DNA from: a virus
Lineage: Duplodnaviria > Caudoviricetes
Direction: 5' to 3' (one strand)
Length of the DNA: 64,000 nucleotides
Virus record (IMG/VR): IMGVR_UViG_3300025840_004398
Shown: positions 1,931 to 63,556 of the stretch, piece after piece
Position numbering within the stretch: position 1 is the stretch's first letter
Layout: each line of letters opens with the position of its first letter
The notes under the pieces: model-generated
Database searches by the model: none
Seen by the model: only the letters and a program-made list of their open reading frames with translations
Told to the model about the DNA's origin: nothing
Position numbers and translations under genes: made by a program

Positions 1931-2581
1931 ATGAAAGGTACAGTTTGGTGTTTTGGTGACAGTTTTTCCACACCATTTAATAAAGAACCATTTACAGGGT
2001 CGGATGAGTATGTTGATTATAAAGGATATGTTCCTAAAATATACCCACAAATTATTTCAGAAAAACTAAACATGAATCTTAAATACTTCTCAGATAGTGG
2101 TAGAGATAACTACTCAATATTTGAAAGTATATGTGAAGTTGCAGACAAAATAAAAGAAGATGATATTATCATTATAGGATGGTCTCATATTGACAGATTT
2201 AGAGTTGTTCAAACCGATGGAATTTGGAAATCTATATTACCATTACCAAGTAAGTATTTTAAATATTGGGATATGATTCCAAATTTTAATAAAGAATTTT
2301 TTCAAATGATGTTAGTAAATCGTATTGACAAGGAAAAGAATTATGCTGATGAACTTAACAATTGGATAAAACTTTTAAATACATGCTTTAAAGATAATAA
2401 AATCATCCATTGGACAGCTTTTAAACAACCCCTTATAAATTGTATATATTTTGAAAATATAGACCTAATAGTAAATGAAACAAACGGTGAAATTAAAGAT
2501 AGACATTATAGTGAATTAGGACACCAACAATTATCTGGTATATTTTTGGATATAATTAATGATACAAAAAAAATAATATGA
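1931..2581 (+). CDS. SGNH/GDSL-like hydrolase or acyltransferase
   Basis: WCFGDSFS block I; C-terminal DRHYSELGH; ends KKII. Confidence 0.75.
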   Translation: MKGTVWCFGDSFSTPFNKEPFTGSDEYVDYKGYVPKIYPQIISEKLNMNLKYFSDSGRDNYSIFESICEVADKIKEDDIIIIGWSHIDRFRVVQTDGIWKSILPLPSKYFKYWDMIPNFNKEFFQMMLVNRIDKEKNYADELNNWIKLLNTCFKDNKIIHWTAFKQPLINCIYFENIDLIVNETNGEIKDRHYSELGHQQLSGIFLDIINDTKKII

Positions 2582-2751
2582 TTATATATATATTTACAGG
2601 ATTAATATGGACTATATTTTTCGAATGGATATTAAGAAACTTTTCACCAACACAAGAAGGTCTACCAACTAATAGAGCAATAATATTTCACATCATTCTT
2701 TGGCCATTGGCCATGTTTATAGTATTTCGAAACCTATTTAATAATAATTAA
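2578..2751 (+). CDS. small 2-TM membrane protein (57 aa)
   Basis: read by hand: MIIYIFTGLIWTIFFEW...HIILWPLAMFIVFRNLFNNN; ATGA overlap with previous stop; below ORF-track cutoff. Confidence 0.7.
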   Translation: MIIYIFTGLIWTIFFEWILRNFSPTQEGLPTNRAIIFHIILWPLAMFIVFRNLFNNN

Positions 2752-2756
2752 AAAAT

Positions 2757-3347
2757 ATGATGGATATAAAAAAATACAAAATAACCGATATTGATTTTAA
2801 TGAAATGTCTGTTGAAATAGACCAAAATGTATTATATGACAAAAGGGCAAACACCGGTAATGTGTCAAAGGCTTCACCAAGTACACAATCCATCGTTGTT
2901 ATTAAAGGTGGTTGGATGGAACATATAAATAACAAGGTTATTGATATAATGAAAAAGGACATATGGAAAAACGATGATGTTTTATTTACAATGTCAAATT
3001 GGGTTTATATCGTTGGCAAAGAGGATAAGGGGGGACCGGTCTACCACAACCACTTATCTATGGAGGACTTGAATACTGTTGGCCAATGGTCTTTTGTTTA
3101 TTACACATCTATGCCAGATATATTAGAAGGAGATGATGGAGTTATATATTTTAAAAACGATAATGGTGAGGAATATAACATATTACCAAAACCAGGAGAC
3201 TTATTAATATTTCCAGCTGAACTATGGCATTTACCAAAAGTAAATCCGAAGTCTAATGAAAAACGAAGAGTTTTGGCTGGAACATTTTCATTACTAGATT
3301 ATAGAGATAGATTTACTTCATATAAAAAAGAAGTTTCATTATTTTAA
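2757..3347 (+). CDS. 2OG-Fe(II) oxygenase-like (HxH...H type)
   Basis: YHNHL, WSFVYY, PKPGDLLIFPAELWH, RRVLAG. Confidence 0.75.
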   Translation: MMDIKKYKITDIDFNEMSVEIDQNVLYDKRANTGNVSKASPSTQSIVVIKGGWMEHINNKVIDIMKKDIWKNDDVLFTMSNWVYIVGKEDKGGPVYHNHLSMEDLNTVGQWSFVYYTSMPDILEGDDGVIYFKNDNGEEYNILPKPGDLLIFPAELWHLPKVNPKSNEKRRVLAGTFSLLDYRDRFTSYKKEVSLF

Positions 3348-3352
3348 ATAAG

Positions 3353-4213
3353 ATGGAGTATCCTTTTTGGATTAACGATTTCGATAGAGTGGGTAATAAG
3401 TACAACAATAAGTACCCACTTGCAGGTGAGATATTCAAATACCCATCTTCCTTTTGGTATGGTGATAATCCAAAGAAACCAAAACAACATATGGAAAAAT
3501 CTATTCGTAGATTGTTAAACCGAGCTCACCCCCAACTACCTGTTCTTGTTATTTATAATATTCCCAATAGGGACATTGGCCAATACTCCAAGGGTGGTGC
3601 AAAGACAAGAGAACGTTACTTGGACTTTATAAAAAGATTTGCAAAAGGAGTTGGAGATAAATCCCCAATAATAATATACGAACCCGATTCCCTACCCCAC
3701 TCAACATTACTCTCAGAAGAAGAGCAGAATTGGAGAATGGAACTGATGAAAGAAGCATTGACATATCTTACTGAAAATTGTAATGGTATAATTTATATTG
3801 ATGTAGGACATTCAAATTGGCTATCACCAAAACAAGTCAGCAGATTATTAGATAGAATTTCTAACCGAAAGGTTAGGGGATTTTCAATTAACTCTTGTAA
3901 TTATAGAACAACAGAAGAATGTATTACATGGGGAACTGAAGTTTGTAGATTTAGAAGAAGAGATTATTTTGTAATTGATACTTCTCGTAACGGTCAAGGA
4001 CCTAAAGATGATGAGTGGTGTAACCCACAAGGTAGAGGATTGGGTGAACCATCAACAACTAAAACCGAACACAGAAAATGTGATGCATACCTTTGGATTA
4101 AAATACCAGGTGAATCCGATGGTAAGTGTAATGGAGGACCTAAAGCTGGAATGTTTTGGGGAGAACAAGCAGAAGAACTTGTTAAAAACTCTAGTTTATA
4201 TTTGGCAGATTGA
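3353..4213 (+). CDS. glycoside hydrolase family 6 (cellulase-like)
   Basis: YNIPNRD, EPDSL, YIDVGH, VIDTSRNG, WCNP.GRGLG, LWIKIPGESDG.C motifs. Confidence 0.92.
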   Translation: MEYPFWINDFDRVGNKYNNKYPLAGEIFKYPSSFWYGDNPKKPKQHMEKSIRRLLNRAHPQLPVLVIYNIPNRDIGQYSKGGAKTRERYLDFIKRFAKGVGDKSPIIIYEPDSLPHSTLLSEEEQNWRMELMKEALTYLTENCNGIIYIDVGHSNWLSPKQVSRLLDRISNRKVRGFSINSCNYRTTEECITWGTEVCRFRRRDYFVIDTSRNGQGPKDDEWCNPQGRGLGEPSTTKTEHRKCDAYLWIKIPGESDGKCNGGPKAGMFWGEQAEELVKNSSLYLAD

Positions 4214-4234
4214 ATTAATTTTCGTATCTTTGTA
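4201..4234 (+). promoter_or_regulatory. Bacteroidetes sigma-A type promoter
   Basis: TTTG 4201-4204, 20-nt spacer, TATCTTTG 4225-4232. Confidence 0.8.
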
Positions 4235-5476: not shown

Positions 5477-5965
5477 ATGGAAAATAAAATAGAACCACTT
5501 AAAGGATTTACATCGGATAATTTTATTATAGATGGCATGTTTAACAAAATAGAAGTTGATGATGTAGACAACTTAACTGATTTGTTAACCTGCCGAATAG
5601 ATGTAAATAATAATCCTATTTTATTAGAATCTAAAAATTGTAATGAATTTCTTATAAGAAGTTGGACAAAGTTAGTCAAGCTTCATCTCAATATTAAAGA
5701 TATAAAAACTCCACCGGTACAAAAATTTATTAAACCTTATATTATTTGTGCAATGCATCAGGATTTTTGGGTAACCAATAAGAATAACTTTATAAGAGCA
5801 AACAACATACAATTAGGAGATGAACTCCTTACCTTTTCATTTGATACATCATTGACTGTTAGTAAAATAGAATTACTAAAAAATGAAAATAAAAAAAACA
5901 TATACGAACTAAAAAATATAACAGATAACAACAATTATTTTGTTAATGGTGTTTTAACAAGATAG
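5477..5965 (+). CDS. stand-alone degenerate Hint (intein-like) domain protein
   Basis: IRANNIQLGDELL and IYELKNITDNNNYFVNGVLTR match Hint blocks; no C1, TxxH or terminal HN. Confidence 0.65.
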   Translation: MENKIEPLKGFTSDNFIIDGMFNKIEVDDVDNLTDLLTCRIDVNNNPILLESKNCNEFLIRSWTKLVKLHLNIKDIKTPPVQKFIKPYIICAMHQDFWVTNKNNFIRANNIQLGDELLTFSFDTSLTVSKIELLKNENKKNIYELKNITDNNNYFVNGVLTR

Positions 5966-6000: not shown

Positions 6001-6585
6001 ATGTACAATAGATTTATTGAAAACTTCTTTTCTAAACAAGAGTGTGAAGATATAATAGAGTTTAGTAAAACAAAAAAACTAATAAAATTAACATCGGTCT
6101 ATATTGATAAAGATAATAATTTCATACCACATGAAGAAGAAGATGAGGAGAATAATAACAGAAGAAACGGTACGATGTATAGTGAAAGTGAAATCATAAA
6201 AACACCATCTTTAAAAAAAATATACGATAGAACTATTCAATATATAAATGACGAACCTCCCTACAAAGGTATGAGTTGCGATGGTATTCCTAAATTCACA
6301 TTCAATAAATACGAAAAAGGAGATTACTTAAATCATCATTTTGATGGCCATGAAATCGAGTTGGGTGCGATTATAACAATAATATATCAACTAAATGATA
6401 ATTACGATGGTGGGGATGTTACCTATATTATAAATGACGAGGAACTTATTGTTCCTAAAAAACAAGGTTCTATTTTTATATTTGATTCGAGAATAGTTCA
6501 TTCTGTAAAAAAGGTTAAATATGGATGTAGATACTCTATGAATTCGTGGCCAGTTTCAAAGATTGAAAAAAAATCTTTGGTATAA
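6001..6585 (+). CDS. 2OG-Fe(II) oxygenase (P4Hc-like)
   Basis: KYEKGDYLNHHFD, QLNDNYDGGD, VHSVKKV..GCRYS; ends KKSLV. Confidence 0.9.
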   Translation: MYNRFIENFFSKQECEDIIEFSKTKKLIKLTSVYIDKDNNFIPHEEEDEENNNRRNGTMYSESEIIKTPSLKKIYDRTIQYINDEPPYKGMSCDGIPKFTFNKYEKGDYLNHHFDGHEIELGAIITIIYQLNDNYDGGDVTYIINDEELIVPKKQGSIFIFDSRIVHSVKKVKYGCRYSMNSWPVSKIEKKSLV

Positions 6586-6798: not shown

Positions 6799-7058
6799 CT
6801 GAAAAAGATTTAATTAATTTAGGATTCGATAAATTCGAACAAAATGATGAAGAAGATAGATTCTACTATTATTGTTATGATTTAAATGGTGAATCGGGAG
6901 GCGGTTCTTTGATATCTCTTGCTAATGATGAAGTAGAGGATGGTAATTGGAAAGTTTCTGCATGGGATATCCATGAGAACTTGGTATTCGAAGATAAAGA
7001 AGATGTCAAGATATACATTGATTTATTAGAAAGAAATATATTACAAAAAGAACTTTGA
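6795..7058 (+). CDS. hypothetical protein
   Basis: ORF track; ATGA overlap. Confidence 0.8.
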   Translation: MTEKDLINLGFDKFEQNDEEDRFYYYCYDLNGESGGGSLISLANDEVEDGNWKVSAWDIHENLVFEDKEDVKIYIDLLERNILQKEL

Positions 7059-7747
7059 TACTATCATTTTTATCATATGGAGAAAAATATCACAAAGAGT
7101 TTTTAGAAATATCAAAAAACTTTAAAAAAGAAAATATAGTCGTTGCTTCTGATAAAATATTTGAAGAGTACCACACAGTATTAATAAAAGACGATTTTAA
7201 TTTTAATTTAAAAGAATTATCAATAACTGAATCTCTTGGGAAAGGTGATTCGGTTTTATATATAGATACTGATACTATTGTTAAAAATCCAAATTATAAC
7301 ATATTAAACGAATTAGATGATGGTATATATGTAAAGTGGATTGGTAATGAAGTTGAATATCTAAATGAAATAATAACATCTAAGAGTTTTAGCTATGGTA
7401 AAACTTCAAGAAGTGATGTAAACAAATATGGAAAAGAACTTTTTAATATAGTGGGTAAACCAATTAAGTTCATAGATGAGTGTATATTATACATAAAATT
7501 AAAAGGGGATATAAAGAATGAATTTATAAAAACCTATAAAGATATAGTATATAAGTTTAAAAATAATACACCTTATAGAGAAACCGATGATAAGTGGGGT
7601 GCAATGGAAGGGTGTATAATATGGTCGGTATCTGAATTATTAAACATTAATATAGATAGTACATCATTATCAGAGTTTTTTAAAGAATTTGAACACTATG
7701 GTCCAACATCAGGACATTCCACAAAAAATATAAAAACAGTTATTTAA
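7055..7747 (+). CDS. glycosyltransferase-like (GT-A, DxD)
   Basis: VLYIDTDTIV DxD motif; TTG start overlapping previous stop; ends KTVI. Confidence 0.55.
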   Translation: MILSFLSYGEKYHKEFLEISKNFKKENIVVASDKIFEEYHTVLIKDDFNFNLKELSITESLGKGDSVLYIDTDTIVKNPNYNILNELDDGIYVKWIGNEVEYLNEIITSKSFSYGKTSRSDVNKYGKELFNIVGKPIKFIDECILYIKLKGDIKNEFIKTYKDIVYKFKNNTPYRETDDKWGAMEGCIIWSVSELLNINIDSTSLSEFFKEFEHYGPTSGHSTKNIKTVI

Positions 7748-10488: not shown

Positions 10489-10881
10489 ATGAATTTTAAC
10501 GATTGGAATGATGACGATGATTTCGAAAATGAAGATGGTAACCATAGAAATGGATATTTCGATAGAATAAGACAAAATGAAAAAGAAATGTTGAAAATAA
10601 ATATGGTACGTCATTTTGAATTTCCACCTTCTTTAGAAGAGTGGAGAGAATTTTTTGGTGAACCCACCGATGAAGATTGTGCCGATATAACACAAGCTTA
10701 TATAAAACAACACCATCATTATGGAGAAAATCATATTGCTCAATTCGTAGATGCATTCGATATTAATTGGGTAAGATATTTATTATGGTACAATGAATCA
10801 GTTGAAGAATATGAACTATGTGCAATACTAAAATCACACATAGATATAAACATCAAATCTCATAAAAAAAGTATTAAATGA
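10489..10881 (+). CDS. hypothetical protein with UVR-like C-terminal motif
   Basis: ESVEEYELCAILK. Confidence 0.7.
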   Translation: MNFNDWNDDDDFENEDGNHRNGYFDRIRQNEKEMLKINMVRHFEFPPSLEEWREFFGEPTDEDCADITQAYIKQHHHYGENHIAQFVDAFDINWVRYLLWYNESVEEYELCAILKSHIDINIKSHKKSIK

Positions 10882-11513
10882 AAGAATTAAAGCTTTGTGA
10901 TAAAATGTCATATTGGTTATCTAGATTTGACACTAAAAATTTAAAATCGATTCTATCAGACACCATATCTTTATCAGAAAAAAATAAAGCCAACAATGGA
11001 GCTCACATGGTATCTAAGCACAAAAATCTAAATGAATTTAATGAATGGATAAACAAAAAGGAAAATCATTTATCGGAACTTTGTCATCATGCATTCTCAG
11101 TTTGTAAGGGGATTACTAAAAAGGAATGGGAATCGATTGAAAGTACATTTTGGATTAATATAGTTAAAGCTAAAAATCCTGTTCAAAGGGGGAAAGTCGA
11201 TGGTAGGGATGATTTAGTATGGCACAATCATACCGAAATAAATAAAAAATATGAAGAAAATCCACCAGACTATACATTCGTATTTTATTTACAAATGCCA
11301 AATAATTTAAAAAATGATGATGGTATGATTTATTTAAGAGGTTCTAAGGGTGAGATAGTTTCATTCCTTCCCAAAGTTGGTGACTTATTAATTTTGGATG
11401 GAAATTGTTGGCATTCACCACAAACAGCATTAAATTCAGACATGGATAGAATTGTACTTGCCGGTAATTTTTATTTTAAACCAAATTTAAAAAAAATGAA
11501 AACATTATTATGA
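10878..11513 (+). CDS. 2OG-Fe(II) oxygenase-like (HxH...H type), paralog of 2757
   Basis: WHNH, FVFYLQMP...DDGMIY, PKVGDLLI...WHSP, RIVLAGNF; ends KTLL. Confidence 0.75.
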   Translation: MKELKLCDKMSYWLSRFDTKNLKSILSDTISLSEKNKANNGAHMVSKHKNLNEFNEWINKKENHLSELCHHAFSVCKGITKKEWESIESTFWINIVKAKNPVQRGKVDGRDDLVWHNHTEINKKYEENPPDYTFVFYLQMPNNLKNDDGMIYLRGSKGEIVSFLPKVGDLLILDGNCWHSPQTALNSDMDRIVLAGNFYFKPNLKKMKTLL

Positions 11514-12415
11514 AAAAAAAAATGTTTTCATTTGGATGTTCTTATACCAACTACCTTTGGCCGACCTATGCTGATTATATAGGTACCATGTTTGAAAATT
11601 ATTATAACCAAGGGATATCGGGTTCTGGTAATAAACGAATATTTAATATTGTTTGTTCACATCTACATAAGTTTACTAAAAATGATTTTGTTGTAATCCA
11701 ATGGAGTGGGTTAGAAAGAAACGATAAAATATTACCACCCACCCACAATAGAATCGATACATTCTCTAATAGACGAATTGATGATGGAACTTGGTTTTCA
11801 AATGGTTCTGTATTTGAAAACAATGGATTTTTTTCGGAAGAATATCGTACTAATTATTTTAGTTATGATGAACAATACGAAATGTTAATATCATATTGTA
11901 AATGTTTAAAGATGATATTAGATAATATAGGATGTAAGTATTTGTTTATTTTTATGTCAAACCCACTAAATCCTTTGTTAAAGAAACTCAACGGAGAGCC
12001 ATTGGCTATATATTATGAATCGGAACTAAGAAATAGAATGTTAGAATCTTTTTATAAAAAATATAATCACGAACATTTTAATCGAGAATTCATAAGAAAC
12101 CTTAACTTTTATAAAAAATGTTTATTTCATCTACAAACAGAAATAGAACAAAATGAAGAATCAAATTATACAGCATCAGATTTGAATGAGCATTTTATCA
12201 AAGATTATCATCCTAAATCACATACTCACTATAAAATAGCCCTTAAACTAATTAAAGATTTAGATATAATTGGAGACCATCCTCTTAAAGAAGATAAATT
12301 AATGTCTTTATCAAAAGAAATTGACAATAAATTTACATATGATAATCTGGAAAAAATTGAATACGATTATAAAACCATACAGGTTGAATCACACAATTCA
12401 ATCAGAGATTTATAA
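11510..12415 (+). CDS. SGNH-like protein
   Basis: FSFGCSYT, GISGSGN, QWSG..R, DYHPKSHTH. Confidence 0.7.
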   Translation: MKKKMFSFGCSYTNYLWPTYADYIGTMFENYYNQGISGSGNKRIFNIVCSHLHKFTKNDFVVIQWSGLERNDKILPPTHNRIDTFSNRRIDDGTWFSNGSVFENNGFFSEEYRTNYFSYDEQYEMLISYCKCLKMILDNIGCKYLFIFMSNPLNPLLKKLNGEPLAIYYESELRNRMLESFYKKYNHEHFNREFIRNLNFYKKCLFHLQTEIEQNEESNYTASDLNEHFIKDYHPKSHTHYKIALKLIKDLDIIGDHPLKEDKLMSLSKEIDNKFTYDNLEKIEYDYKTIQVESHNSIRDL

Positions 12416-12451: not shown

Positions 12452-13330
12452 GTGGATACTGTAATATACTCTTATAAAAATATAAACACACAAGGTAAAA
12501 CATTTGACGATGATTTTATTAAAATGGCAAGGTTATCGGTTGAATCATCTTCTAAGTTTTACAAAACAAAGTTATATTGTGATGGGGGTAGTAAAGAACT
12601 ATTTGACAGGTATAATATAAAATTTGATGAGGTTATAGTACTTGATGAGTTAAATGATTATAGTGGTTCTGTATTTTGTATGCCAAAAATAATCACAATG
12701 ATGCATCAAACTGAACCATATATTCATTTAGACTTTGATGTTTTAATTTTAAGAAAACTTCAAGATAAAGATTGTATTGGATTTGCATATCCTGAAGTTA
12801 GTATATCACCCACATATAATTTTGAACAAATTGAGTATGTATATGAATCCTATATATTACCATTTAAAAAATACTCAAAGGATAAAACAGATTATAAAGA
12901 ATCTATACTTTGGAACTTTGATAAGATACCAAATCATGGTATCATTTATGTAAACAATCCAAACATAATAAAGTCAGCTTACCAGCAAATTATAATAGAT
13001 TTTGAAGATGCGGTAAACGAATCGAAACCAATGGAGGGATTGGCTCAGTATATAGAACAGTTTAGCTTAAAAAGATATTTAGATGAGAATAAAATAAAAT
13101 ATGATTTTTATGAAGATGTTTGTAATTTTTCATTTGAAATCGATATGAATAAATTTACAATAAGGGGTAATAGTAAATTAAAAACAGATTTACACTTCTT
13201 ATTACATCATGATTTTATTCACTTTCATAATTACCCATTAAATAGAGAACTGTTTAGAGAAATAATTGATTATTTTAATATGTCTATTTTTAATAAAAAA
13301 ACTGAAAAAATAAATAAAATTTTAATGTAA
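12452..13330 (+). CDS. DUF6734-like / GT-like protein
   Basis: PKIITMMHQTEPYIHLDFDVLI; PNHGII; IEQ; ends KILM. Confidence 0.55.
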   Translation: MDTVIYSYKNINTQGKTFDDDFIKMARLSVESSSKFYKTKLYCDGGSKELFDRYNIKFDEVIVLDELNDYSGSVFCMPKIITMMHQTEPYIHLDFDVLILRKLQDKDCIGFAYPEVSISPTYNFEQIEYVYESYILPFKKYSKDKTDYKESILWNFDKIPNHGIIYVNNPNIIKSAYQQIIIDFEDAVNESKPMEGLAQYIEQFSLKRYLDENKIKYDFYEDVCNFSFEIDMNKFTIRGNSKLKTDLHFLLHHDFIHFHNYPLNRELFREIIDYFNMSIFNKKTEKINKILM

Positions 13331-14234: not shown

Positions 14235-15479
14235 ATGAAAAATATTCACATAATTGGAGGAGGTACTGCGGGTTGGTTAACTGCTATGTTCTTACAAAAC
14301 ATACAACCAAAATCAAATATAACTTTGATTGAAAGTAAATCTATCGGCATAGTAGGTGTGGGTGAAGGTACTACCCCAAACATAAGAGCTTTATTTAAAC
14401 GGCTATGCATAGATGAAGAGGATTTTCAATCAAATACAAATTCTACGAGAAAGATAGGAATTCATTTTAGTAATTGGCCTGGAGATGGTTCATCTTATAA
14501 TCATGATTTTTATTTATCAAATAAAAGAAATTACGCATTTCACTTTGATACCTATACTCTTGGTGAATATTTTAAAAACAAAGCCAAACAAAAAGGTATT
14601 AACTATATACAAGATGATGTATTGGAATTCAAAACAGAAGATGTACTAATTAATGGAGATACCGAATCCCACATAAGACAACTAATACTCCAAGATAATG
14701 GAGTTATTGAAACTGATTTTATATTTGATTGTACCGGATTCTCACGATTAATTCTAGATAAGGTTATGAAATCAAAATGGGTTTCTGTTAAAAAATACTT
14801 AACCCTTAATTCAGCATTACCCTTTTATTTACCAAACGACACTTTGTTATCTAAAGATACTAATACACGAACAGATTCCATCAGTATGAAAAATGGTTGG
14901 TTATGGATGATACCACTCCAAGATAGAATGGGATGTGGGTATGTTTTTGATTCCAACTATATAAGTGATGAAGAAGCAAAAAAAGAAGTAGAAGAATTCT
15001 TAGGTCATTCTGTTGATTTTAAAAAAAGAATATCGTTTGAATCAGGATACTTTAATGAAGTATGGAAAGGAAATTGTATATCAATTGGATTAAGTGGGGG
15101 TTTTTTTGAGCCACTTGAAGCAACATCCATAATGACTATTATTATTCAATTAAATAAATTGATAAGTAACTCGTTTGATTACACTAAACGGAATTTTTAT
15201 AATCTATCTATTAGAAATGCAAATGAACAAATTTTAAATTTTATAAGATATCATTATGTATGTGATAGAGATGATTCTAAATTTTGGCAAGATTATAAAA
15301 AAAGAGAAATGCCTGATAAATTAAAATCTCTTTTAAATGATAAAAATAAATTAAAAGTATTAACTACGAAGGAATTAAATAAAATTTTAAAAAATCCAGT
15401 TGGCGCAACTGTATTTGATATACCAAGTTATTTAATACAAAGTTCGGGTAATTTTAAAAAAGAAACCCCAATAATATAA
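14235..15479 (+). CDS. flavin-dependent halogenase (tryptophan halogenase family)
   Basis: GGGTAGW, GVGEGT, TRKIGIHFSNW (catalytic Lys), YAFHFD, DCTGF, WLWMIP, FFEPLEATSI. Confidence 0.9.
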   Translation: MKNIHIIGGGTAGWLTAMFLQNIQPKSNITLIESKSIGIVGVGEGTTPNIRALFKRLCIDEEDFQSNTNSTRKIGIHFSNWPGDGSSYNHDFYLSNKRNYAFHFDTYTLGEYFKNKAKQKGINYIQDDVLEFKTEDVLINGDTESHIRQLILQDNGVIETDFIFDCTGFSRLILDKVMKSKWVSVKKYLTLNSALPFYLPNDTLLSKDTNTRTDSISMKNGWLWMIPLQDRMGCGYVFDSNYISDEEAKKEVEEFLGHSVDFKKRISFESGYFNEVWKGNCISIGLSGGFFEPLEATSIMTIIIQLNKLISNSFDYTKRNFYNLSIRNANEQILNFIRYHYVCDRDDSKFWQDYKKREMPDKLKSLLNDKNKLKVLTTKELNKILKNPVGATVFDIPSYLIQSSGNFKKETPII

Positions 15480-16634: not shown

Positions 16635-17516
16635 ATGGTGATTCCTACTACAATACTCTTTAATGATAGAGTATGTTTTATAACTTTTTATAAGGTTGGT
16701 AGTAGAGCTACTGTTGACTTATTTAATAGATTTACCAATCAAGAAAACATTATTAAGGCTGAAATTAAAGTAGATGAAAACTTTAAACTTATAGATGATG
16801 ACATTTCCCATATTGGTAAACAACTTGCTCAAATTGAAAAGGACAAGGTAAGAAAAGAATTAAATAATATTTTTTTAGAGAAAACAGAAAAAGATATAAT
16901 AATATTATATCGAGACCCATCTAAAAGATTTTTAACAGGAATTATAGAAGAATTTTCATTTAGTTTAAAAAAGTATTTTGATAATGATAATTATAACACA
17001 ATTATAAGTGATGTAATAAATTCGTTAAATTTTAATGGTACTCAAGATGAATACGAATCAATTTTAGAAAGAAAGGGTGTTTTTGTATTAAATCAAAATT
17101 ATAGTAGACTATCTAAAAATGAATCTGATTTTTATAAAAAATTATTTTATGAATATATTAATGAACTTTCCAAACGTTCGTTTAATACTGGACATACATA
17201 TCACTATTTGACACCACTTTTTTTATTATTAGAGACCAATGAGGCCATAAAAAATAATCGTAAAATAAAATTACTAAATTTAGATTTAGATAAAAATAAA
17301 TTACAAGAAACCTTACTTGGATATGGCTCTCATGGTGAAGTTGAATCAATTCCTAATTCAACTTCCAATTCATTATTCGTAGATTTTGCAAACGAATTGA
17401 TATTCAAAGGTCAGGCTGATTGGGATAAACAAAAACTTAAAAACTCTATATCAAGATATCTAATGTATGAAAATATAGGATATAAAAAACTTATAAATAA
17501 TCCTAAAAATATTTAA
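16635..17516 (+). CDS. sulfotransferase family 2-like protein
   Basis: FYKVGSR (PAPS 5' loop-like) and LYRDPSKRFLTG (3' site-like). Confidence 0.55.
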   Translation: MVIPTTILFNDRVCFITFYKVGSRATVDLFNRFTNQENIIKAEIKVDENFKLIDDDISHIGKQLAQIEKDKVRKELNNIFLEKTEKDIIILYRDPSKRFLTGIIEEFSFSLKKYFDNDNYNTIISDVINSLNFNGTQDEYESILERKGVFVLNQNYSRLSKNESDFYKKLFYEYINELSKRSFNTGHTYHYLTPLFLLLETNEAIKNNRKIKLLNLDLDKNKLQETLLGYGSHGEVESIPNSTSNSLFVDFANELIFKGQADWDKQKLKNSISRYLMYENIGYKKLINNPKNI

Positions 17517-20766: not shown

Positions 20767-20779
20767 CAAACAACATAAT

Positions 20780-20986
20780 ATGAAAAGATATCCTCATCAA
20801 TGTGGACCAATAGAATATATTAACAATGAGGCTTATCAAATTGTTGCGAGATATTCCATAACAGAAGTTAAAGATGCTCAATTAATCAAAGAATGGTTGG
20901 GGTGTGATACCGTATTTAAATCAAACAGACAAAATCTATTTATATTTTGTAATCACATAGAAGAGATAACTTGGGAAACGATATAG
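20780..20986 (+). CDS. hypothetical protein
   Basis: ORF track. Confidence 0.8.
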
Positions 20987-20988
20987 TT

Positions 20989-21531
20989 ATGAAAATTCTG
21001 ATAATTGCAATACCCCGTTCTGGTTCAACTTCGTTGATGAGCAATATAGCTAATATTTTATCTTTAAAACCAGTACCCGAACCATTTAATCCTACATTTA
21101 CAAAAAAGGTTAATTATACTATTGGTGAAGATGATGTTGTTGTTAAAATAATTACAGGACAGGATGATAGATATTCGGATATAATTGATTGGGATTATTG
21201 GAAATCATTTATATTGGATTTTATTCCACAATTTGATAAAACAATATTGTTAACAAGAATGGATACTAAAGCTCAATTAGAATCATTCTCATATGCTAGT
21301 CATTTTAAAAAAGGATGGTTTGAATCTTATACTTATGAATCACCACCATACGAAGTGATATCTGATTGTAAAGAATATTTAGATTCAAGTATTGAAGCTA
21401 TTAAAGAAGTAATAAGAAAATTAAAAAATAAAGGAATACATTTGGAAATAAAATATTATGAAGATTTTTTCGATGTATCTTCAGAAAAAAGACTAAGAAA
21501 ATCATCCAAAAGCAATAATACTTTAATTTAA
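20989..21531 (+). CDS. sulfotransferase-like protein
   Basis: IIAIPRSGSTSL PAPS loop, EPFNP; start reassigned to 20989; ends KSNNTLI. Confidence 0.7.
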   Translation: MKILIIAIPRSGSTSLMSNIANILSLKPVPEPFNPTFTKKVNYTIGEDDVVVKIITGQDDRYSDIIDWDYWKSFILDFIPQFDKTILLTRMDTKAQLESFSYASHFKKGWFESYTYESPPYEVISDCKEYLDSSIEAIKEVIRKLKNKGIHLEIKYYEDFFDVSSEKRLRKSSKSNNTLI

Positions 21532-21544: not shown

Positions 21545-22000
21545 ATGAGATGGGTACAATACTTCAGAGAACTTGCACATACAGTCAAGAAAAAATCCAA
21601 AGATAAGAACACACAAATTGGTGCTGTAATTGTTGGTAAGGATAAAGAAATTGTATCTACTGGTTATAATTCTTTTCCTCGTGGTATTAATGATAATCTC
21701 GATGAAAGACAAGAAAGACCAGAAAAGTATTATTGGTTCGAACATGGTGAAAGAAATGCAATCTACAATGCAGCAAGAATAGGAGTTTCTACCAAGGGAA
21801 CAACTATGTACCTTTCATGTGGAGTTCCTTGTTCAGATTGTGCAAGGGGAATCATAAATGCAGGAATCGTTCGTATCTTTTGTGAACGAGGTGGTGGAGC
21901 AAAAGGACCTAAATGGGCAGATTCAGCCGAACGTAGTTGGGAGATGTTAGAAGAAGCTGGTGTTAAAGTTTGTTTTTACGATGATGATTTCCATGTCTAA
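21545..22000 (+). CDS. dCMP deaminase
   Basis: SKD..TQIGAVIV, TGYNSFPRG, HGERNAI, PCSDCARGI. Confidence 0.93.
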   Translation: MRWVQYFRELAHTVKKKSKDKNTQIGAVIVGKDKEIVSTGYNSFPRGINDNLDERQERPEKYYWFEHGERNAIYNAARIGVSTKGTTMYLSCGVPCSDCARGIINAGIVRIFCERGGGAKGPKWADSAERSWEMLEEAGVKVCFYDDDFHV

Positions 22001-23508: not shown

Positions 23509-23510
23509 AA

Positions 23511-31495: not shown

Positions 31496-31496
31496 T

Positions 31497-38005: not shown

Positions 38006-38130
38006 CACCACACGATATAAAACAAATTCAAAGAGAATTATCATTACTTAAAATGAAAGAAGTAATTACGATAAACGATAAATACAGAATACAAAAATTA
38101 CAACAATTATTAGACGAAAATTATGATTAG
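38002..38130 (+). CDS. small hypothetical protein (42 aa)
   Basis: read by hand: MTPHDIKQIQRELSLLKMKE...; ATGA overlap. Confidence 0.65.
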   Translation: MTPHDIKQIQRELSLLKMKEVITINDKYRIQKLQQLLDENYD

Positions 38131-42694: not shown

Positions 42695-44401
42695 ATGAAA
42701 GGTTATATTTTAGGAATATCGTGTGGATATCACGATAGTGCAGCTGCACTGATTAAAGATGGAAAAGTTTTAGGAGCGGTAGAAGAAGAAAGATTTACTG
42801 GTATAAAACACGATTCATCTTTTCCTATTAATACAATCCAATGGTTATACAAAGAATTCAAAATAGAAGGTGAGGATATAGAATCAGTTGCTTTCTATGA
42901 TAATCCCAAAACCAAATTAGATAGAATACAAAAATCTCTTAAACGAGGACCTATATCTCAATATTTTAATCGTGGTAAAATTCTAAAAAGAAATAAAATA
43001 AAATACGATACTTTTGAAAAACAAATTTATGGTATTACACATACCAACGTAAATATATTTTATTCAGACCACCACCTTTCACACGCATCATATTCCTTTT
43101 ACACATCTCCATATGATAGAGCATCTATTCTTTCGGTAGATGGAGTTGGTGAATGGGAAACAACCACTCTTTGGTATGGTGAAGGAAATAAGATTTCAAA
43201 AATACAACAGATTAACTTCCCACATTCACTTGGGATGTTATATTCAGCCTTTACTGCTTTCTTAGGTTTCAAACCAAACGAAGGTGAGTACAAAGTTATG
43301 GGTTTGGCTCCATATGGTGACCCAAAAACGTTTCTTAATAAATTTAGGAAACTATATACCCTCACAGATGATGGTGGATTCGAACTGAATATGGAATACT
43401 TTACATATGATTGGTCAGATACTCATATGTTTAACGAGAAGTTGGGACAACTCTTGGGTATTCCAAATCGGTTACCTGAAGATAATTTAAATCAACCTCA
43501 CAAAGATTTATCAGCAACTCTACAACACGAATACGAATTTCTATTCTTTAGATTAGTAAATAGATTATTCGCAGTTCGTTCATCTAACAATTTATGTTTG
43601 AGTGGTGGATGTGCATACAATGGAACTGCAAATGGAAAGATATTAGAGAAATCAAACTTTAAGAATGTTTGGATTCCACCTGCTCCATCTGATGCTGGTT
43701 CTGCTATCGGTGCCGCACTTCATGTTTATTTCGAAATGGGGGGAACTCAAAAGGTAGATAACACAACTCCTTATCTTGGTCCTCACTACAAAAACGAAGA
43801 TGTAGAAAAGGCTTTAGAAGAAATGGATGTAGATGTTTGGTTCGAAAAGAAATCACATTCAGAAATAATTCCTTTAATCTCAAAAGAAATCACAGAAGGA
43901 AATGTAGTAGGTTGGTTTGAAGGTAAAATGGAATTTGGTTCTCGTGCATTAGGAAATCGTTCTATTTTAGCAAATCCATGTGACCCACAAATGAAATCAA
44001 GGGTAAATCGAGTAATTAAAAAGAGAGAAGGATTCAGACCCTTTGCTCCAATGGTAAAGTTAGAAGAACAAACAAAATACTTTGATTATAAAAAAGAAGT
44101 TCCTTATATGAATCAAGTGGTAAAGGTAAAAGAAGAGCATCAATCTAAATTACCAGCAATCACTCATGTTGATGGTTCTGCAAGAATTCAATCAGTTACC
44201 AAAAGACAACATAAGAGAATCTACGAACTTCTCACACAACTTCACAAAGATAATGGATATCCAATAGTTCTCAACACTTCATTCAATTTAAAAGACCAAA
44301 CAATGGTTTTAGACCCAAGAACTGCAATCGAAACTTTCTTAGATTGTGAAATGGATACTTTAGTAATTCACAATTATATTATAAAGAAAAAGATTTTATA
44401 A
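42695..44401 (+). CDS. carbamoyltransferase (NodU/CmcH/TobZ family)
   Basis: HDSAAAL..EEERF..KH, HHLSHA, DGVGE, GEYKVMGLAPYG, GFRPFAP, HVDGSARIQ, NTSFN; ends KKKIL. Confidence 0.95.
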   Translation: MKGYILGISCGYHDSAAALIKDGKVLGAVEEERFTGIKHDSSFPINTIQWLYKEFKIEGEDIESVAFYDNPKTKLDRIQKSLKRGPISQYFNRGKILKRNKIKYDTFEKQIYGITHTNVNIFYSDHHLSHASYSFYTSPYDRASILSVDGVGEWETTTLWYGEGNKISKIQQINFPHSLGMLYSAFTAFLGFKPNEGEYKVMGLAPYGDPKTFLNKFRKLYTLTDDGGFELNMEYFTYDWSDTHMFNEKLGQLLGIPNRLPEDNLNQPHKDLSATLQHEYEFLFFRLVNRLFAVRSSNNLCLSGGCAYNGTANGKILEKSNFKNVWIPPAPSDAGSAIGAALHVYFEMGGTQKVDNTTPYLGPHYKNEDVEKALEEMDVDVWFEKKSHSEIIPLISKEITEGNVVGWFEGKMEFGSRALGNRSILANPCDPQMKSRVNRVIKKREGFRPFAPMVKLEEQTKYFDYKKEVPYMNQVVKVKEEHQSKLPAITHVDGSARIQSVTKRQHKRIYELLTQLHKDNGYPIVLNTSFNLKDQTMVLDPRTAIETFLDCEMDTLVIHNYIIKKKIL

Positions 44402-61627: not shown

Positions 61628-62758
61628 ATGTTAAAATCAATACCAAAATCAAATATATCTCATAGGAGTTTTAAAGTCTATAAGAGATTTACAGCAGACC
61701 AATCAGTTTATCCGGTAATAAAGGCATATTCTGAGGATGGGGTGTTTGATTCCGATACATTCACTAAAGATGAAGGTGTATATGTTCATTTGATTTATAA
61801 ATCAATTGAAAAAAAATATTATACTGATAATGGTTTATTAAACAATTATGGTTTAACTAATAAAAATCGTACATTTGCGGAAGAACGAGAATTTGGTGAT
61901 ACTATTTATGTAATAAAAATAAATCAATCAAAATTTGGTGAGAGAATCAAACCAGGTTCTTTAGACATTACAGATACAGATAGAAACATTACATATATAG
62001 ATAGTGGTGATGGTAGATTGACAAGTTCTTCTCCAACTTATGTTATAACAAGTTTAGATGTTGAAAATGGAACATTGACTTTATCGATAGATGGTAATGA
62101 TGTCATTTTAACAGTTACTTCAATTGATTTGGAAACAGGTGCTGCAATTTTGACCTATGGTTCTTCTACTGATACTGAATTTATATCTATTATTGATTTT
62201 GAAAATGATACAATTACTTTTACTGCTGAACTTCAGTTTGGTAGTTTGCAATTTCCAAGACAAGATTTTGGAAATATATTTTACTCAGATGGTTTAATTG
62301 TATTTACAGAACTTGATGTTGATTTAGAAAATTATGAAATAGAATATAGAGCAACACAAACAATACACGAAACCGAAGTTTTACTTGAAGCAAAATCAGG
62401 CGAATTTAATTTCTCACAAAACCCATCTGCTGTTGATGTTACACTTAGTGGTTCGTATGATTTTACTACAACCGCAATTACAAATGTATCACCTGCTAAA
62501 ACAGTTAAAATTAAAGAAGTTTTAGATATATCACAAAAAACATCTTATGATGGTTCATATGGTTCTAATACTGGCTCTTGGGATGATTATGATAATTATA
62601 AAATTACAGACCCAACTGGTTCATATTTAGCTCCGTTTGTAACAACTATTGGGTTATATGATAACGAAGGTAATATGATTGCGGTAGCTAAATTACCTCA
62701 ACCAATTAAGAATTTACCAGATTATGATGTGAACTTTATTGTTCGTTTTGATACTTAG
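61628..62758 (+). CDS. tail/baseplate structural protein, paralog of 60341
   Basis: EFNFSQNPSA; VTTIGLYDNEGNMIAVAKLPQPI. Confidence 0.75.
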   Translation: MLKSIPKSNISHRSFKVYKRFTADQSVYPVIKAYSEDGVFDSDTFTKDEGVYVHLIYKSIEKKYYTDNGLLNNYGLTNKNRTFAEEREFGDTIYVIKINQSKFGERIKPGSLDITDTDRNITYIDSGDGRLTSSSPTYVITSLDVENGTLTLSIDGNDVILTVTSIDLETGAAILTYGSSTDTEFISIIDFENDTITFTAELQFGSLQFPRQDFGNIFYSDGLIVFTELDVDLENYEIEYRATQTIHETEVLLEAKSGEFNFSQNPSAVDVTLSGSYDFTTTAITNVSPAKTVKIKEVLDISQKTSYDGSYGSNTGSWDDYDNYKITDPTGSYLAPFVTTIGLYDNEGNMIAVAKLPQPIKNLPDYDVNFIVRFDT

Positions 62759-62762
62759 AACA

Positions 62763-62770
62763 TATTTATA
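62763..62770 (+). promoter_or_regulatory. candidate late-promoter motif TATTTATA
   Basis: intergenic, then AAGAGGA and ATG 62790. Confidence 0.55.
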
Positions 62771-62789
62771 CTAAAAGAGGAAGATTATT

Positions 62790-62975
62790 ATGGCTTCAAT
62801 TAAAGACTTATACGACAAATCAGATTTTTCTAAATATCCATTGGGTACTAAATTAGACAAAACACCAATCGAAGCGGATGGTGGTAAAGATTTGTCTAAA
62901 GATGAAAAGGCTCTTGAAAAAGCAAGAGGAGCTAAATTAAATCTGAAAAAATACTCAGATTCGGTTCAATACTAA
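62790..62975 (+). CDS. small hypothetical protein
   Basis: ORF track; SD present. Confidence 0.8.
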   Translation: MASIKDLYDKSDFSKYPLGTKLDKTPIEADGGKDLSKDEKALEKARGAKLNLKKYSDSVQY

Positions 62976-62986
62976 ACCAATCACTT

Positions 62987-63556
62987 TTGAGTTTATTAAT
63001 CAATCATTTTAACAAATGGGGGTTTGTTCATATACCAAAAACTGGTGGAACAACAATATCTACTGTGCTTAGAACTCAACCAAATACAGAAGTGTTGGAT
63101 TCTCACAATTCTATAAATAAATTATCTGATATAAATGGATATTATATATTTTCTTGTGTTAGAAATCCTTTTACAAGATTAGCTTCTACATATTATCACG
63201 AATGTAGAAAATCACAACAAATACCCTTTTCTAATTTTTTAAAAGAGATAGACAAGAATTATATATTATATCTTCCCCAAAGTTATTATTTAAAAACCGG
63301 TAAGGAACTTAATCAAAATATATCGTACATTTGTAGGTACGAAAATTTTATAAACGATTTTAAAAATGTACTTGATAAATTAAATATATCGAGTCAAATT
63401 CCTCACCTAAATCGTAATCCAATTTATGATAGACATCCAAACTTAAATCAAGAACAATATTATAAGTTTTTGTATCAAGAGGAGTGGATGAAAGATTGGG
63501 TACGAGAAAGGTACGAAGATGATTTCAAAATTTTTAACTATGACATGGACATATAA
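62987..63556 (+). CDS. sulfotransferase family 2 protein
   Basis: FVHIPKTGGTTI; VRNPFTRLAS; ICRYEN; TTG start. Confidence 0.88.
   Translation: MSLLINHFNKWGFVHIPKTGGTTISTVLRTQPNTEVLDSHNSINKLSDINGYYIFSCVRNPFTRLASTYYHECRKSQQIPFSNFLKEIDKNYILYLPQSYYLKTGKELNQNISYICRYENFINDFKNVLDKLNISSQIPHLNRNPIYDRHPNLNQEQYYKFLYQEEWMKDWVRERYEDDFKIFNYDMDI

Follow-up and report, generated by a model that had tools for sequence, protein, structure and literature searches.

What could be the substrate of about 19 tailoring enzymes dispersed among the early genes of a large uncultured water phage? The enzymes were found in a 64,000-nt stretch (the window), and a preliminary description had proposed a combinatorial decoration pathway for virion proteins or glycans, the host surface or DNA. 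The relatives of the window form a phage family with complete genomes of 250–290 kb, of which the window represents the early-to-baseplate portion; the host is probably among aquatic Bacteroidota. The features considered are listed below, where 'tagged' denotes the C-terminal tail described later, with the final residues in brackets.

1931..2581 (+), SGNH-like protein, 216 aa; tagged (..DTKKII); GDS..G..N..DxxH conserved (alignment A1); weak Pfam GDSL match
2757..3347 (+), PF13759-type oxygenase (2OG_b), 196 aa; tagged (..EVSLF); 2OG-FeII_Oxy_5, E 2e-5; HxH..H..R
5477..5965 (+), stand-alone Hint-like ORF, 162 aa, upstream of 2OG_a; PT-HINT, E 3.5e-4
6001..6585 (+), canonical 2OG-Fe(II) oxygenase (2OG_a), 194 aa; tagged (..KKSLV); PF13640; HxD..H..R invariant
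7055..7747 (+), ORFan, 230 aa, DxD motif; tagged (..NIKTVI); putatively GT-like
10878..11513 (+), PF13759-type oxygenase (2OG_b), 211 aa; tagged (..KMKTLL); HxH..H..R
11510..12415 (+), SGNH-like protein, 301 aa, GCS replacing GDS; untagged; family by jackhmmer
12452..13330 (+), DUF6734 protein, 292 aa, predicted GT-A/GT8-like fold; tagged (..INKILM); PF20508, E 6e-9
14235..15479 (+), flavin-dependent halogenase, 414 aa; tagged (..KETPII); PF04820; GxGxxG and WxWxIP
16635..17516 (+), sulfotransferase-like protein, 293 aa; half tag (..NPKNI); KVGS and RDPxKRxxT motifs
20971..21531 (+), sulfotransferase-like P-loop protein, 186 aa; tagged (..NNTLI); PRSGST motif
21960..23075 (+), N-terminal-twitch radical SAM enzyme, ~364 aa; tagged (..LEKVI); NF033640, 296 bits; CxxxCxxC
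23077..23957 (+), two stand-alone Hint-like ORFs, 143 and 155 aa; weak matches, E ~2e-3
25021..25371 (+), small tagged protein, 116 aa, no family assigned (..KKIKLI)
25406..26146 (+), SGNH-like protein, 246 aa; untagged; late-type promoter motif upstream; family by jackhmmer
26792..27847 (+), divergent N-terminal-twitch radical SAM enzyme, 351 aa; tagged (..KSNLI); NF033640, 74 bits, under the cut-off
31425..31841 (+), IscA-like Fe-S assembly protein; PF01521
34636..35958 (+), N-terminal-twitch radical SAM enzyme, ~421 aa; tagged (..IKNVI); NF033640, 357 bits
35948..37156 (+), radical SAM enzyme with C-terminal Cys-rich domain, 402 aa; tagged (..LKSII); PF04055
37153..37830 (+), SGNH-like protein, 225 aa; tagged (..YINLI); family by jackhmmer
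38123..39085 (+), SAM synthetase MetK, 320 aa; untagged; three MetK Pfam domains; TIGR01034, E 1e-72
39138..39608 (+), cytidylyl/adenylyltransferase-family enzyme, 156 aa; untagged, conserved; PF01467; RfaE domain II, E 6e-16
42695..44401 (+), NodU/CmcH-type carbamoyltransferase, 568 aa; tagged (..KKKIL); PF02543 and PF16861; NodU model, E 7e-47
62987..63556 (+), Sulfotransfer_2 enzyme, 189 aa; untagged; PF03567, E 3e-13

Motifs, a jackhmmer family and Pfam or profile matches bore out the four radical SAM, four SGNH-like and three oxygenase calls of the preliminary description. The radical SAM enzymes are of the twitch/SPASM types, and CxxxCxxC is intact in all four ORFs (21960, 26792, 34636 and 35948). 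Two exceeded the 170-bit cut-off of NF033640 (N_Twi_rSAM), one was a divergent member and one had the canonical domain order. The enzyme at 26792 shares 53% identity with the radical SAM enzyme closing the compact cluster of relatives described below, while that at 34636 opens a phage-specific insert in the helicase slot and occupies the same place in one of 33 relatives. No homologue of 35948 was found among the fetched relatives. The SGNH-like proteins at 1931, 11510, 25406 and 37153 belong to a single family with conserved Ser, Gly, Asn and His residues, of which 5 of 23 members matched Pfam GDSL; weak PDB matches were to carbohydrate esterases (CE2, CE12). The gene at 25406 follows the late-type promoter motif ATATTTATA at 25378, runs on with PhoH and the radical SAM gene at 26792, and has a syntenic 72% homologue in the complete genome G001. 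The oxygenases at 2757 and 10878 are paralogues. For the oxygenase at 6001, PDB profile matches were to PKHD hydroxylases and prolyl 4-hydroxylases, indicating from its sequence an enzyme of that type.

Three sulfotransferase-like proteins were likewise upheld, 62987 firmly and the others with moderate confidence: 20971 on the basis of 5 of 21 family members matching Sulfotransfer_4, and 16635 on its motifs and a fold search (VIA) with a model of pLDDT 65, in which the top 12 matches were all sulfotransferases (Z 5.3–6.8), heparan-sulfate sulfotransferases being closest. The gene at 62987 lies directly after the tail-fibre genes, has a late motif upstream at 62763 and is syntenic in complete genomes G001 and G002; this untagged enzyme probably belongs to a separate late glycan process. 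Of two proteins described as GT-like, 12452 is predicted to have a GT8 glycosyltransferase-like fold (AlphaFold2 model, mean pLDDT 80; best Foldseek matches XXYLT1, glycogenin and LgtC, E 6e-6), with a nearly invariant DxD. The other, 7055, had no Pfam match and only two relatives in the database search; as an ORFan with a DxD motif only, its call stays putative. Pfam or model matches supported the halogenase (14235), carbamoyltransferase (42695) and nucleotidyltransferase (39138). The halogenase has >565 viral relatives and also scores against LodB and QhpG, flavoenzymes that modify protein Trp. The carbamoyltransferase is syntenic in 26 of 33 relatives, and the nucleotidyltransferase is probably outside the tagged set. 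MetK likely supplies cofactor to the radical SAM enzymes, which the IscA-like protein likely supports.

The genes are placed as first described, singly or in runs of two to three with conserved genes between. They close early transcription units and fill variable slots; most lie within early units, apart from the late virion genes. Their reported AT-richness, based on hand-picked samples that proved exact (12/60 GC at 12301–12360; 24/60 in metK at 38701–38760), held for all ORFs of at least 100 aa (GC 0.276 for enzymes vs 0.324 for the rest; Mann-Whitney p=4e-6). The deficit sits in GC1 and GC2, with GC3 the same as in core genes; the enzyme genes are therefore not recent imports, and a foreign origin deduced from low GC was rejected. 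Nor are they decaying, a possibility raised at the outset: dN/dS was 0.10–0.38 in 14 of 15 testable genes (NG86) and catalytic motifs are intact, so the genes are under purifying selection.

A feature common to most of these enzymes, which come from unrelated families, is the tail K-K-[S/T]-L-I (consensus K-K-[S/T/K]-[L/I]-[I/L]). It ends 14 of the 19 enzymes, five lacking it, vs 2 of 78 other ORFs (Fisher p=4e-11), one of these two being 25021..25371. The tail is retained in most homologues of 2OG_a (86%), the sulfotransferase-like family ST_c (89%), halogenase (87%), the radical SAM family rSAM_b (87%) and 2OG_b (79%), and in 50–60% of GT8-like, rSAM_N, SGNH and carbamoyltransferase homologues. 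The rate was 12% in background ORFs and 0–3% in homologues of MetK, the nucleotidyltransferase (2%) and DUF7717. Genome-wide, the excess is small (6–7% in G001 and G002 vs 4.5% in G004).

More than 50 viral contigs of relatives carry these enzyme families as a single, tightly packed operon-like block of ~16 kb. Its order is GT8-like, carbamoyltransferase, oxygenase, GT25, SGNH, GT8-like and halogenase between two oxygenase types, followed by a peptide gene, SGNH, oxygenase, sulfotransferase-like and radical SAM; common to the loci is 2OG_b, SGNH, GT8-like, halogenase, then ST_c and rSAM_b. Eight genes of the tightly packed operon L203/L277 have homologues in the window. An oxygenase lies within 1.5 kb of the halogenase in ~85% of 79 halogenase loci on viral contigs, across 25 halogenase clusters (70% identity). 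The peptide gene (~496 aa), the centre of the block, occurs near the halogenase in 52 of the 79 loci. It encodes an N-domain that matched no Pfam family or solved structure in sequence searches, a Hint domain ending in ..MHN (PT-HINT, E 6.6e-8 for the G001 gene) and a six-Cys, Trp/Pro/Tyr-rich peptide of 27–30 residues with the form SCWCPWNYCGHWCNSxxCPxC...K[L/I].

This hub gene sits 2–5 kb after the dCMP deaminase gene in relatives. In loci of ~20 kb anchored on that gene, an anchor independent of the enzymes, 11 had both hub and enzymes, none had the hub without enzymes, three had enzymes without the hub and 17 had neither (Fisher p=4e-6, shared ancestry being ignored). Among complete genomes, G001 has the hub with 22 enzyme-family genes and G002 the hub with 21; G004 has neither. 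In G001, the homologue of the small tagged protein 25021 lies immediately upstream of the 2OG_a and Hint-peptide genes. The hub gene is absent from the window, where the Hint-like ORFs at 23077..23957 occupy its position in close relatives and weakly match (E ~2e-3) the Hint/intein parts of their hub genes. The preliminary description had noted that no canonical RiPP precursor was visible in the window; the relatives, however, encode a candidate substrate, the hub peptide, as a putative non-canonical precursor that could not be seen there because the hub gene is missing.

The shared tail, the collinear clustering in relatives and the co-occurrence with the hub support a functional link among the enzymes, as opposed to a random assortment. 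In this phage the block has been pulled apart. The set is indeed combinatorial, but at the population level, each phage carrying its own subset and alleles. The tail and the single block around a Hint-peptide gene suggest that they probably form one peptide-decorating system. On balance, we lean towards a tailoring set of one phage-family-specific RiPP-like system, its peptide gene not in the window. The Hint domain would release or transfer the Cys-rich peptide, and the tail would bring all enzymes to a putative common receptor. The halogenase would act on Trp, the prolyl-hydroxylase-like oxygenase on Pro and the sulfotransferases on Tyr or hydroxyl groups. The radical SAM enzymes, fed by MetK and the IscA-like protein, would make Cys cross-links, and the GT8-like enzyme, carbamoyltransferase and SGNH enzymes would attach further groups.

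Given several families typical of carbohydrate enzymes, a glycan or glycopeptide product would fit equally well, the latter uniting both readings, and the originally proposed glycan target is retained as a live rival. Here, the enzymes would sulfate, carbamoylate and acylate a sugar-nucleotide or sugar polymer and edit it by radical SAM chemistry; this target would be a glycan on the host surface or be made by the conserved late glycan operon that lies downstream of the tail-fibre genes. The GT8-like fold, the NodU-type carbamoyltransferase, the CE2 and CE12 matches, the heparan-sulfate likeness of 16635, the two NF033640 members, the GT25 (1.7e-14) and APS kinase (5e-19) of the compact cluster and the late, fibre-adjacent 62987 all point this way. 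However, the most constant part of the cluster is the halogenase with prolyl-hydroxylase-like oxygenases, not sugar enzymes, a Cys-rich peptide gene lies at its centre, most window enzymes are early, and 62987 looks like a separate process. We regard glycan tailoring as unlikely, though it is the strongest competitor.

Less probable still, the enzymes could be unconnected 'morons', exchanged freely and one by one within a hyperplastic early region and serving no common pathway, much as 2OG oxygenase, halogenase and carbamoyltransferase genes occur sporadically in T4-like cyanophages and pelagiphages. For cyanophages, these classes have been catalogued among the sporadic non-core genes (PMC3037559), and the cultured pelagiphage HTVC008M has an oxygenase and a halogenase wedged between its terminase genes. 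Each window enzyme is in its own place in only 0–4 of ~32 relatives, compared to 17–33 for flanking genes, and the post-helicase slot varies from 56 bp to 5.7 kb, containing DUF6734, oxygenase, sulfotransferase-like, halogenase or radical SAM genes in other phages. Against this stand the common tail on unrelated families, the conserved order and tight operon in relatives and the all-or-none co-occurrence with the peptide gene. The set is indeed combinatorial, but at the population level, each phage carrying its own subset and alleles.

Hypermodification of phage DNA or its precursors, the remaining suggestion, is very improbable. In its favour, dCMP deaminase and 5'-nucleotidase genes are interspersed with the enzymes, and the helicase slot, filled by thyA in 44 related loci, here contains two radical SAM genes and one SGNH gene instead. 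However, the canonical oxygenase clusters with prolyl and lysyl hydroxylases rather than TET/JBP-like enzymes, with far lower scores for Tet-like ones; the window showed no gene of base-transferase or glycosylase type; and the nucleotide genes are untagged conserved core, present even in the enzyme-less G004.

Phage clusters of dioxygenases and halogenases have been known since 2010, when peptide modification was inferred for those with multiple dioxygenases and Trp halogenases (Iyer et al. 2010, PMC2938197). The enzymes diverge far faster than neighbouring genes, and such fast swapping and divergence between phages would yield different peptide variants, presumably in an arms race.

The preliminary description had proposed a combinatorial decoration pathway from a dispersed arsenal of enzyme genes. 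The observation was confirmed and the interpretation was supported in part. A C-terminal tail carried by most of the enzymes, their clustering in relatives and a partner gene within that cluster indicate, at the level of sequence, that the enzymes form one system. What gives the system its interest is the tail that its enzymes share, together with the non-canonical precursor, rather than the dispersal of its genes.

Pfam and NCBIfam scans bore out the four radical SAM genes originally listed, with CxxxCxxC found in all four. Membership of the N-terminal-twitch subfamily (NF033640, N_Twi_rSAM) was judged by this motif, by the curated cut-off of 170 bits and by a Cys-rich twitch module N-terminal to the core. 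The four genes, by ORF start position, were:

21960, plus strand: radical SAM enzyme, NF033640 at 296 bits (above the cut-off of 170), N-terminal-twitch member
34636, plus strand: radical SAM enzyme, NF033640 at 357 bits (above the cut-off of 170), N-terminal-twitch member
26792, plus strand: radical SAM enzyme, NF033640 at 74 bits (below the cut-off), divergent and outside the subfamily cut-off
35948, plus strand: radical SAM enzyme, NF033640 at 51 bits (core only, below the cut-off), canonical domain order with a Cys-rich C-terminus

The same scans confirmed the halogenase, the NodU-type carbamoyltransferase and the cytidylyl/adenylyltransferase-family enzyme, and also supported MetK and one firm Sulfotransfer_2 enzyme. 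The halogenase was assessed for a GxGxxG FAD motif, a WxWxIP motif, a catalytic Lys and a PF04820 match. The protein (PF04820; 414 aa, shorter than PrnA and RebH) contains GGGTAGW for the first motif and GWLWMIPL for the second, and is a predicted flavin-dependent, Trp-type halogenase.

The four SGNH-like ORFs were found to be one family by iterated search against fetched relatives. They were assessed for the block I Ser (GDS), block II Gly, block III Asn and block V DxxH His, and for the Pfam gathering score. In a 23-member alignment, the Ser, Gly, Asn and His were each at least 90% conserved; Pfam GDSL was matched weakly by five of the 23 members (best E 6.8e-5), and none reached the gathering score. 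Profile matches to the PDB were also weak (E 0.05–0.9), and eight of the ten were to SGNH esterases; the weak matches are carbohydrate esterases. Ten copies of this family occur in each of two complete relative genomes, G001 and G002 (loci L155–L183), with seven or eight crowded within the final 30 kb of the sequence, and none in a third, G004.

For the 2OG-Fe(II) oxygenases, the HxD/E...H facial triad and the 2OG-binding Arg were inspected. In the oxygenase at 6001, H113, D115, H167 and R177 were invariant among 20 sequences, and the best solved relatives were the PKHD hydroxylase 3dkq (3e-14) and prolyl 4-hydroxylases; it is predicted to be a canonical 2OG-Fe(II) oxygenase of the prolyl-4-hydroxylase/PKHD-like type. 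The putative oxygenases at 2757 and 10878 are of the PF13759 type, with an HxH..H..R pattern and scores under the Pfam cut-off. Across the 21 aligned members of their family, the Arg was invariant, as were both the second and the distal His, and the HxH pattern was present in 18. The acidic metal-ligand position varied (Asp in seven, Glu in four, Arg in three, Pro in three, Ser in one, among others), being Ser in the protein at 2757. The family may have a three-His site, or may include halogenase-like variants among its members.

Three sulfotransferase-like and two glycosyltransferase-like genes had also been listed. The former were examined for the 5'-phosphosulfate loop (PKxGxT/S), the 3'-phosphate motif (RxxxxRxxS) and a Pfam match. 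The assignment held firmly for the gene at 62987 (PF03567 at 51 bits against a cut-off of 22), and was suggestive for those at 20971 and 16635. The protein at 20971 contains PRSGST; five of 21 members of its family matched Sulfotransfer_4, with E down to 7e-5, and hhalign gave a probability of 32% against the firm sulfotransferase. When each of the two weak families was set against the firm one by profile–profile alignment, matching was confined to the P-loop and 3'-PB motifs (probability 8–32%). Both PAPS-binding motifs (KVGS and RDPxKRxxT) were found in the protein at 16635. With its model, of middling confidence (pLDDT 65), the 12 best VIA-align matches were all sulfotransferases at middling Z values of 5.3–6.8, and Foldseek returned no significant match. 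The glycosyltransferase-like genes were judged by a Rossmann-like GT-A fold and a DxD metal motif. For the DUF6734 protein at 12452, the model (pLDDT 80) had a GT-A fold nearest to GT8 enzymes, Foldseek matched XXYLT1, glycogenin, LgtC and UGGT at probability 1.0 (TM 0.4–0.5), and D94/D96 of the DxD were nearly invariant, so that a GT8-like GT-A glycosyltransferase fold is predicted from the model. The second gene, at 7055, is a putative glycosyltransferase-like ORFan, for which a database search found only itself and one relative at 66% identity.

The C-termini of these enzymes were then compared. Two final aliphatic residues with a preceding Lys or Arg were present in 14 of the 19 tailoring enzymes, compared with two of the 78 other ORFs (p=4e-11). 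Over 638 distinct homologues, the consensus was K-K-[S/T/K]-[L/I]-[I/L], and the tail was retained in 50–89% of members per enzyme family, compared with 0–3% for homologues of MetK, the nucleotidyltransferase and DUF7717, and 12% for background ORFs. In sequence, K-K-[S/T]-L-I resembles a PDZ-type C-terminal ligand. The same tail (..KKIKLI) ends a 116-aa protein of no recognised family (25021–25371, plus strand), whose homologue in G001 lies directly upstream of oxygenase and Hint-peptide genes.

A collection of viral contigs was searched by alignment with the halogenase, giving more than 565 relatives, and the best 79 loci were examined. In about 85% of these, spanning 25 halogenase clusters at 70% identity, an oxygenase lay within 1.5 kb of the halogenase. 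Many halogenase loci contained a densely packed run of about 16 kb. In order, it comprises genes for DUF6734, a carbamoyltransferase, an oxygenase, GT25, SGNH, a DUF6734-like protein, an APS-kinase-like protein and the halogenase; these are followed by two oxygenases, three genes without known family, SGNH, an oxygenase, a sulfotransferase-like gene and a radical SAM gene. Homologues of eight genes of this run are present in the window with the backbone order shared, spread over about 42 kb. The APS-kinase-like gene was given little weight as support for sulfation, since G004 keeps this gene without having any sulfotransferase-like gene.

One of the conserved family-less genes of the compact cluster, found in 52 of the 79 loci, encodes a 496-aa protein with an N-domain, a Hint domain and a six-Cys peptide, referred to here as the hub. 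Its Hint C-terminal motif is followed by a peptide of 27–30 residues, SCWCPWNYCGHWCNSxxCPxC...K[L/I]; the candidate precursor is fused behind the Hint domain and is without a short leader. The hub protein, N-domain included, matched no Pfam family and, by sequence, no solved structure; an identity as an ATP-grasp ligase was accordingly left unconfirmed. No match to the hub was found among deposited phage genomes. In G001, the closest complete relative (20727–23021, locus L156), the protein is 764 aa long, with further Hint domains inserted. The Hint/intein-like insertions there fall within its short tail, which includes Cys residues (..VHNA-PC-[Hint]-RESLPC-[Hint]-K).

The occurrence of the hub and the enzymes in dCMP-deaminase-anchored loci was almost all-or-none (11 loci with both, 0 with the hub only, 3 with enzymes only and 17 with neither; p=4e-6, uncorrected for ancestry). 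Both G001 and G002 have the hub together with the enzyme families, and G004 has neither. A complex prediction of the hub (L197 type, alignment A9) with the window oxygenase at 6001 (alignment A7) scored 0.00, which gives no verdict either way on binding. The absence of a visible RiPP precursor was upheld for the window itself, where tblastn found no hub homologue, but a candidate is present inside the cluster of relatives. On its own, then, the window does not amount to a RiPP cluster, and its enzymes may be a working part of one. Close relatives have the hub 2–5 kb after the dCMP deaminase; the window has at that site a radical SAM gene plus two Hint-like ORFs that stand alone.

The distribution of the enzymes was determined in 31–33 full-length relatives, with the helicase and dCMP deaminase as anchors independent of the enzymes. 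The enzymes were variable between conserved, syntenic core genes. Each enzyme was at the same place in 0–4 of these relatives, where it was usually just 25–60% identical, and the interleaved conserved genes were found in 17–33. None of the enzyme families was present in G004. In the relative whose helicase is 95% identical, the oxygenase, GT8-like, halogenase and sulfotransferase-like genes at the corresponding positions were only 31–42% identical, compared with 52–82% for the genes between them. Among about 230 loci, the best match was 34–72% for most tagged enzymes against 76–96% for core genes; for the syntenic carbamoyltransferase it was 84%.

Among relatives, the slot that follows the helicase, up to the next conserved gene, ranged from 56 bp to 5.7 kb. 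Elsewhere it usually holds thyA, and also DUF6734, oxygenase, sulfotransferase-like, halogenase or radical SAM genes; in the window (34697–37837, ending at a 55-aa gene before MetK) it is occupied by a pair of radical SAM genes together with one SGNH gene. Thymidylate synthase (PF00303, E 7e-95) fills this slot in 44 related loci; thyA is nowhere in the window, yet the dCMP deaminase (21545–22000) is retained.

Decay of the enzymes, with dN/dS near 1, was not seen. The NG86 dN/dS was 0.10–0.38 in 14 of 15 testable genes, with dS near saturation and the one outlier resting on an alignment of 39% identity. Metagenome copies of the phage (99.8–100% identical) were too similar for pN/pS. The AT-richness first noted held in the per-gene comparison of all window ORFs of at least 100 aa, where GC was 0.276 for the nineteen enzymes and 0.324 for the rest (p=4e-6); the two 60-nt GC values originally quoted were exact. 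GC1 (p=2e-5) and GC2 (p=0.0015) differed but GC3 did not (0.188 against 0.211, p=0.15), and the bias therefore sits in amino-acid composition, as expected when genes evolve fast under AT pressure, and does not mark the genes as foreign. Recent horizontal import from a GC-richer donor was rejected, as the GC3 of the enzymes equals that of the core genes.

An early promoter unit of the Bacteroidota (-33/-7) type, 45–60 nt long with the form TTTGG-N19-CGTATATTTG, was present in eleven copies (670, 4183, 6568, 13334, 16101, 17506, 27868, 28129, 31825, 39069 and 40974). These head the transcription units of the first 45 kb, and most tagged enzymes are distal in early units. By analogy with T4, where repeated promoter units act as recombination sites for cassette shuffling, these units could do likewise. 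A late motif, ATATTTATA, was located 23–34 nt upstream of eleven starts, mainly of virion genes. It lies upstream of the run formed by SGNH 25406, PhoH and radical SAM 26792, and of the untagged sulfotransferase at 62987, which follows the fibre genes; in one relative, a late-type motif lies 27 nt upstream of the hub. Units of terminator plus late promoter were observed at 45414 and 61569.

All genes of the window are on the plus strand, with a GC content of about 30% and five tRNA genes; tRNA, nucleotide-metabolism and repair genes are interleaved with the enzyme module. From about 4 to 65 kb, it is collinear with G001 (276 kb), and thus spans the right-hand portion of a large phage's early region together with its baseplate and fibre module. 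The other complete relatives compared were G002 (289 kb with terminal repeats) and G004 (253 kb). The helicase (33314–34696) has homologues at 63–95% identity on 64 IMG/VR contigs, some of them complete genomes of 253–289 kb, and its nearest matches in cultured phages are at 37%, in Cellulophaga phages phi17:2 and phi4:1. The host is probably an aquatic member of the Bacteroidota. ENA and JGI metagenome contigs, the longest of 94 kb, carry the sequence at 99.8–100% identity. No near-identical match was found when 20 kb of it was searched as DNA against deposited phages, and ten ORFs without family gave no match in PHROGs. A 434-aa protein (30191–31495) with N-terminal membrane segments, a coiled coil, an acidic EF-hand-like tail and an upstream late motif was present in all 33 helicase-anchored relatives. 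At 3353–4213 is a cellulase-type glycoside hydrolase of family 6 (PF01341, E 2.7e-52), a gene carried by just two related viral contigs.

The enzyme set of the window is postulated to tailor the Cys-, Trp-, Pro- and Tyr-rich peptide of the hub, with whose residues the enzyme classes fit. MetK and an IscA-like protein would provide cofactor support, and recruitment would be through the common tail. In its fullest form this would be leaderless tailoring, with up to about 14 unrelated enzymes brought by the same short tail to one receptor that is linked to a self-cutting six-Cys peptide protein; this form is put forward tentatively, as a possibility on the unlikely side.

A product that is instead a glycan or glycopeptide is possible, and the GT8-like, GT25, NodU-type and carbohydrate-type sulfotransferase-like members favour it. 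An alternative target for the oxygenases could be the 45-residue (KPQP)n/(KP)n linker of a 522-aa late protein (53152–54720), since Pro-rich repeats are substrates of viral prolyl hydroxylases (PBCV-1). The 522-aa protein and a 285-aa protein (24137–24994, after a late motif) have in common a 29-residue motif, GLDRTGLR.RYDTGD.GPL.

Peptide tailoring has a proposed precedent in the Syn9 gp40–gp54 array of ten dioxygenases and two halogenases, for which successive hydroxylation and halogenation of a peptide was predicted without identifying the peptide, and whose bacterial versions also include sulfotransferases and ATP-grasp peptide synthetases (Iyer, Abhiman, de Souza & Aravind 2010, PMC2938197). 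Like the present set, these tandem clusters of dioxygenase and tryptophan-halogenase genes in T4-like cyanophages combine several unrelated 2OG oxygenase families with flavin-dependent halogenases in a large marine or aquatic myovirus. Unlike them, the window adds radical SAM, SGNH, GT8-like, carbamoyl- and sulfotransferase-like enzymes, most of its enzymes have the common tail, and the cluster of its relatives contains the Hint-fused Cys-rich peptide gene. In HTVC008M, the one cultured pelagiphage checked, an oxygenase and a halogenase, both without the tail, are wedged between the terminase genes.

RiPP clusters include peptide-Trp halogenases such as MibH and twitch/SPASM radical SAM maturases. 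As in these, an encoded Cys-, Trp- and Pro-rich peptide lies beside halogenase, oxygenase, radical SAM and sulfo-/glycosyl-transferase genes. Here, however, no leader peptide or RRE stands out, the peptide forms the C-terminus of a protein of about 496 aa behind Hint, and the common recognition element appears on the enzymes rather than on the substrate; the window genes are scattered, with the precursor outside.

Variable enzyme slots between conserved core modules are also a feature of the hyperplastic or hypervariable regions and host-recognition cluster of T4-like cyanophages and pelagimyophages, where they differ even among close relatives. Multi-copy 2OG oxygenases, PrnA-type halogenases and carbamoyltransferases are sporadic genes of the former (Sullivan et al. 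2010, PMC3037559), and variable radical SAM and glycosyltransferase cassettes occur in the latter (Zaragoza-Solas et al. 2020, PMC7029224). By contrast, the present phage probably infects Bacteroidota, has relatives of 250–290 kb, and has variable enzymes united by the tail and by synteny with a peptide gene, features not found in these two papers at the terms searched. These enzymes go unmentioned in a paper on freshwater Bacteroidetes myoviruses that encode bS21, and a literature search for the tagged module or for similar phage RiPP clusters turned up nothing of relevance.

Since about 2010, the targets of phage halogenases, radical SAM enzymes, hydroxylases and sulfo-, carbamoyl- and glycosyl-transferases in marine and freshwater systems have been obscure. 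If the leaderless reading is true, the enzymes could be scattered, swapped and replaced by distant alleles without loss of the pathway because recognition sits on the enzymes, and the shared tail would explain how the pathway is kept working though its genes are dispersed and exchanged singly. The module would be a source of new tailoring enzymes, and the tail, the Hint-peptide protein and one small product would give a direct experimental handle. If the enzymes do tailor the hub peptide, a widespread group of uncultured large phages would make a heavily modified cysteine-rich product; in the leaderless form, a phage population would have its decorated peptides as a combinatorial library to deploy against hosts or rival phages.
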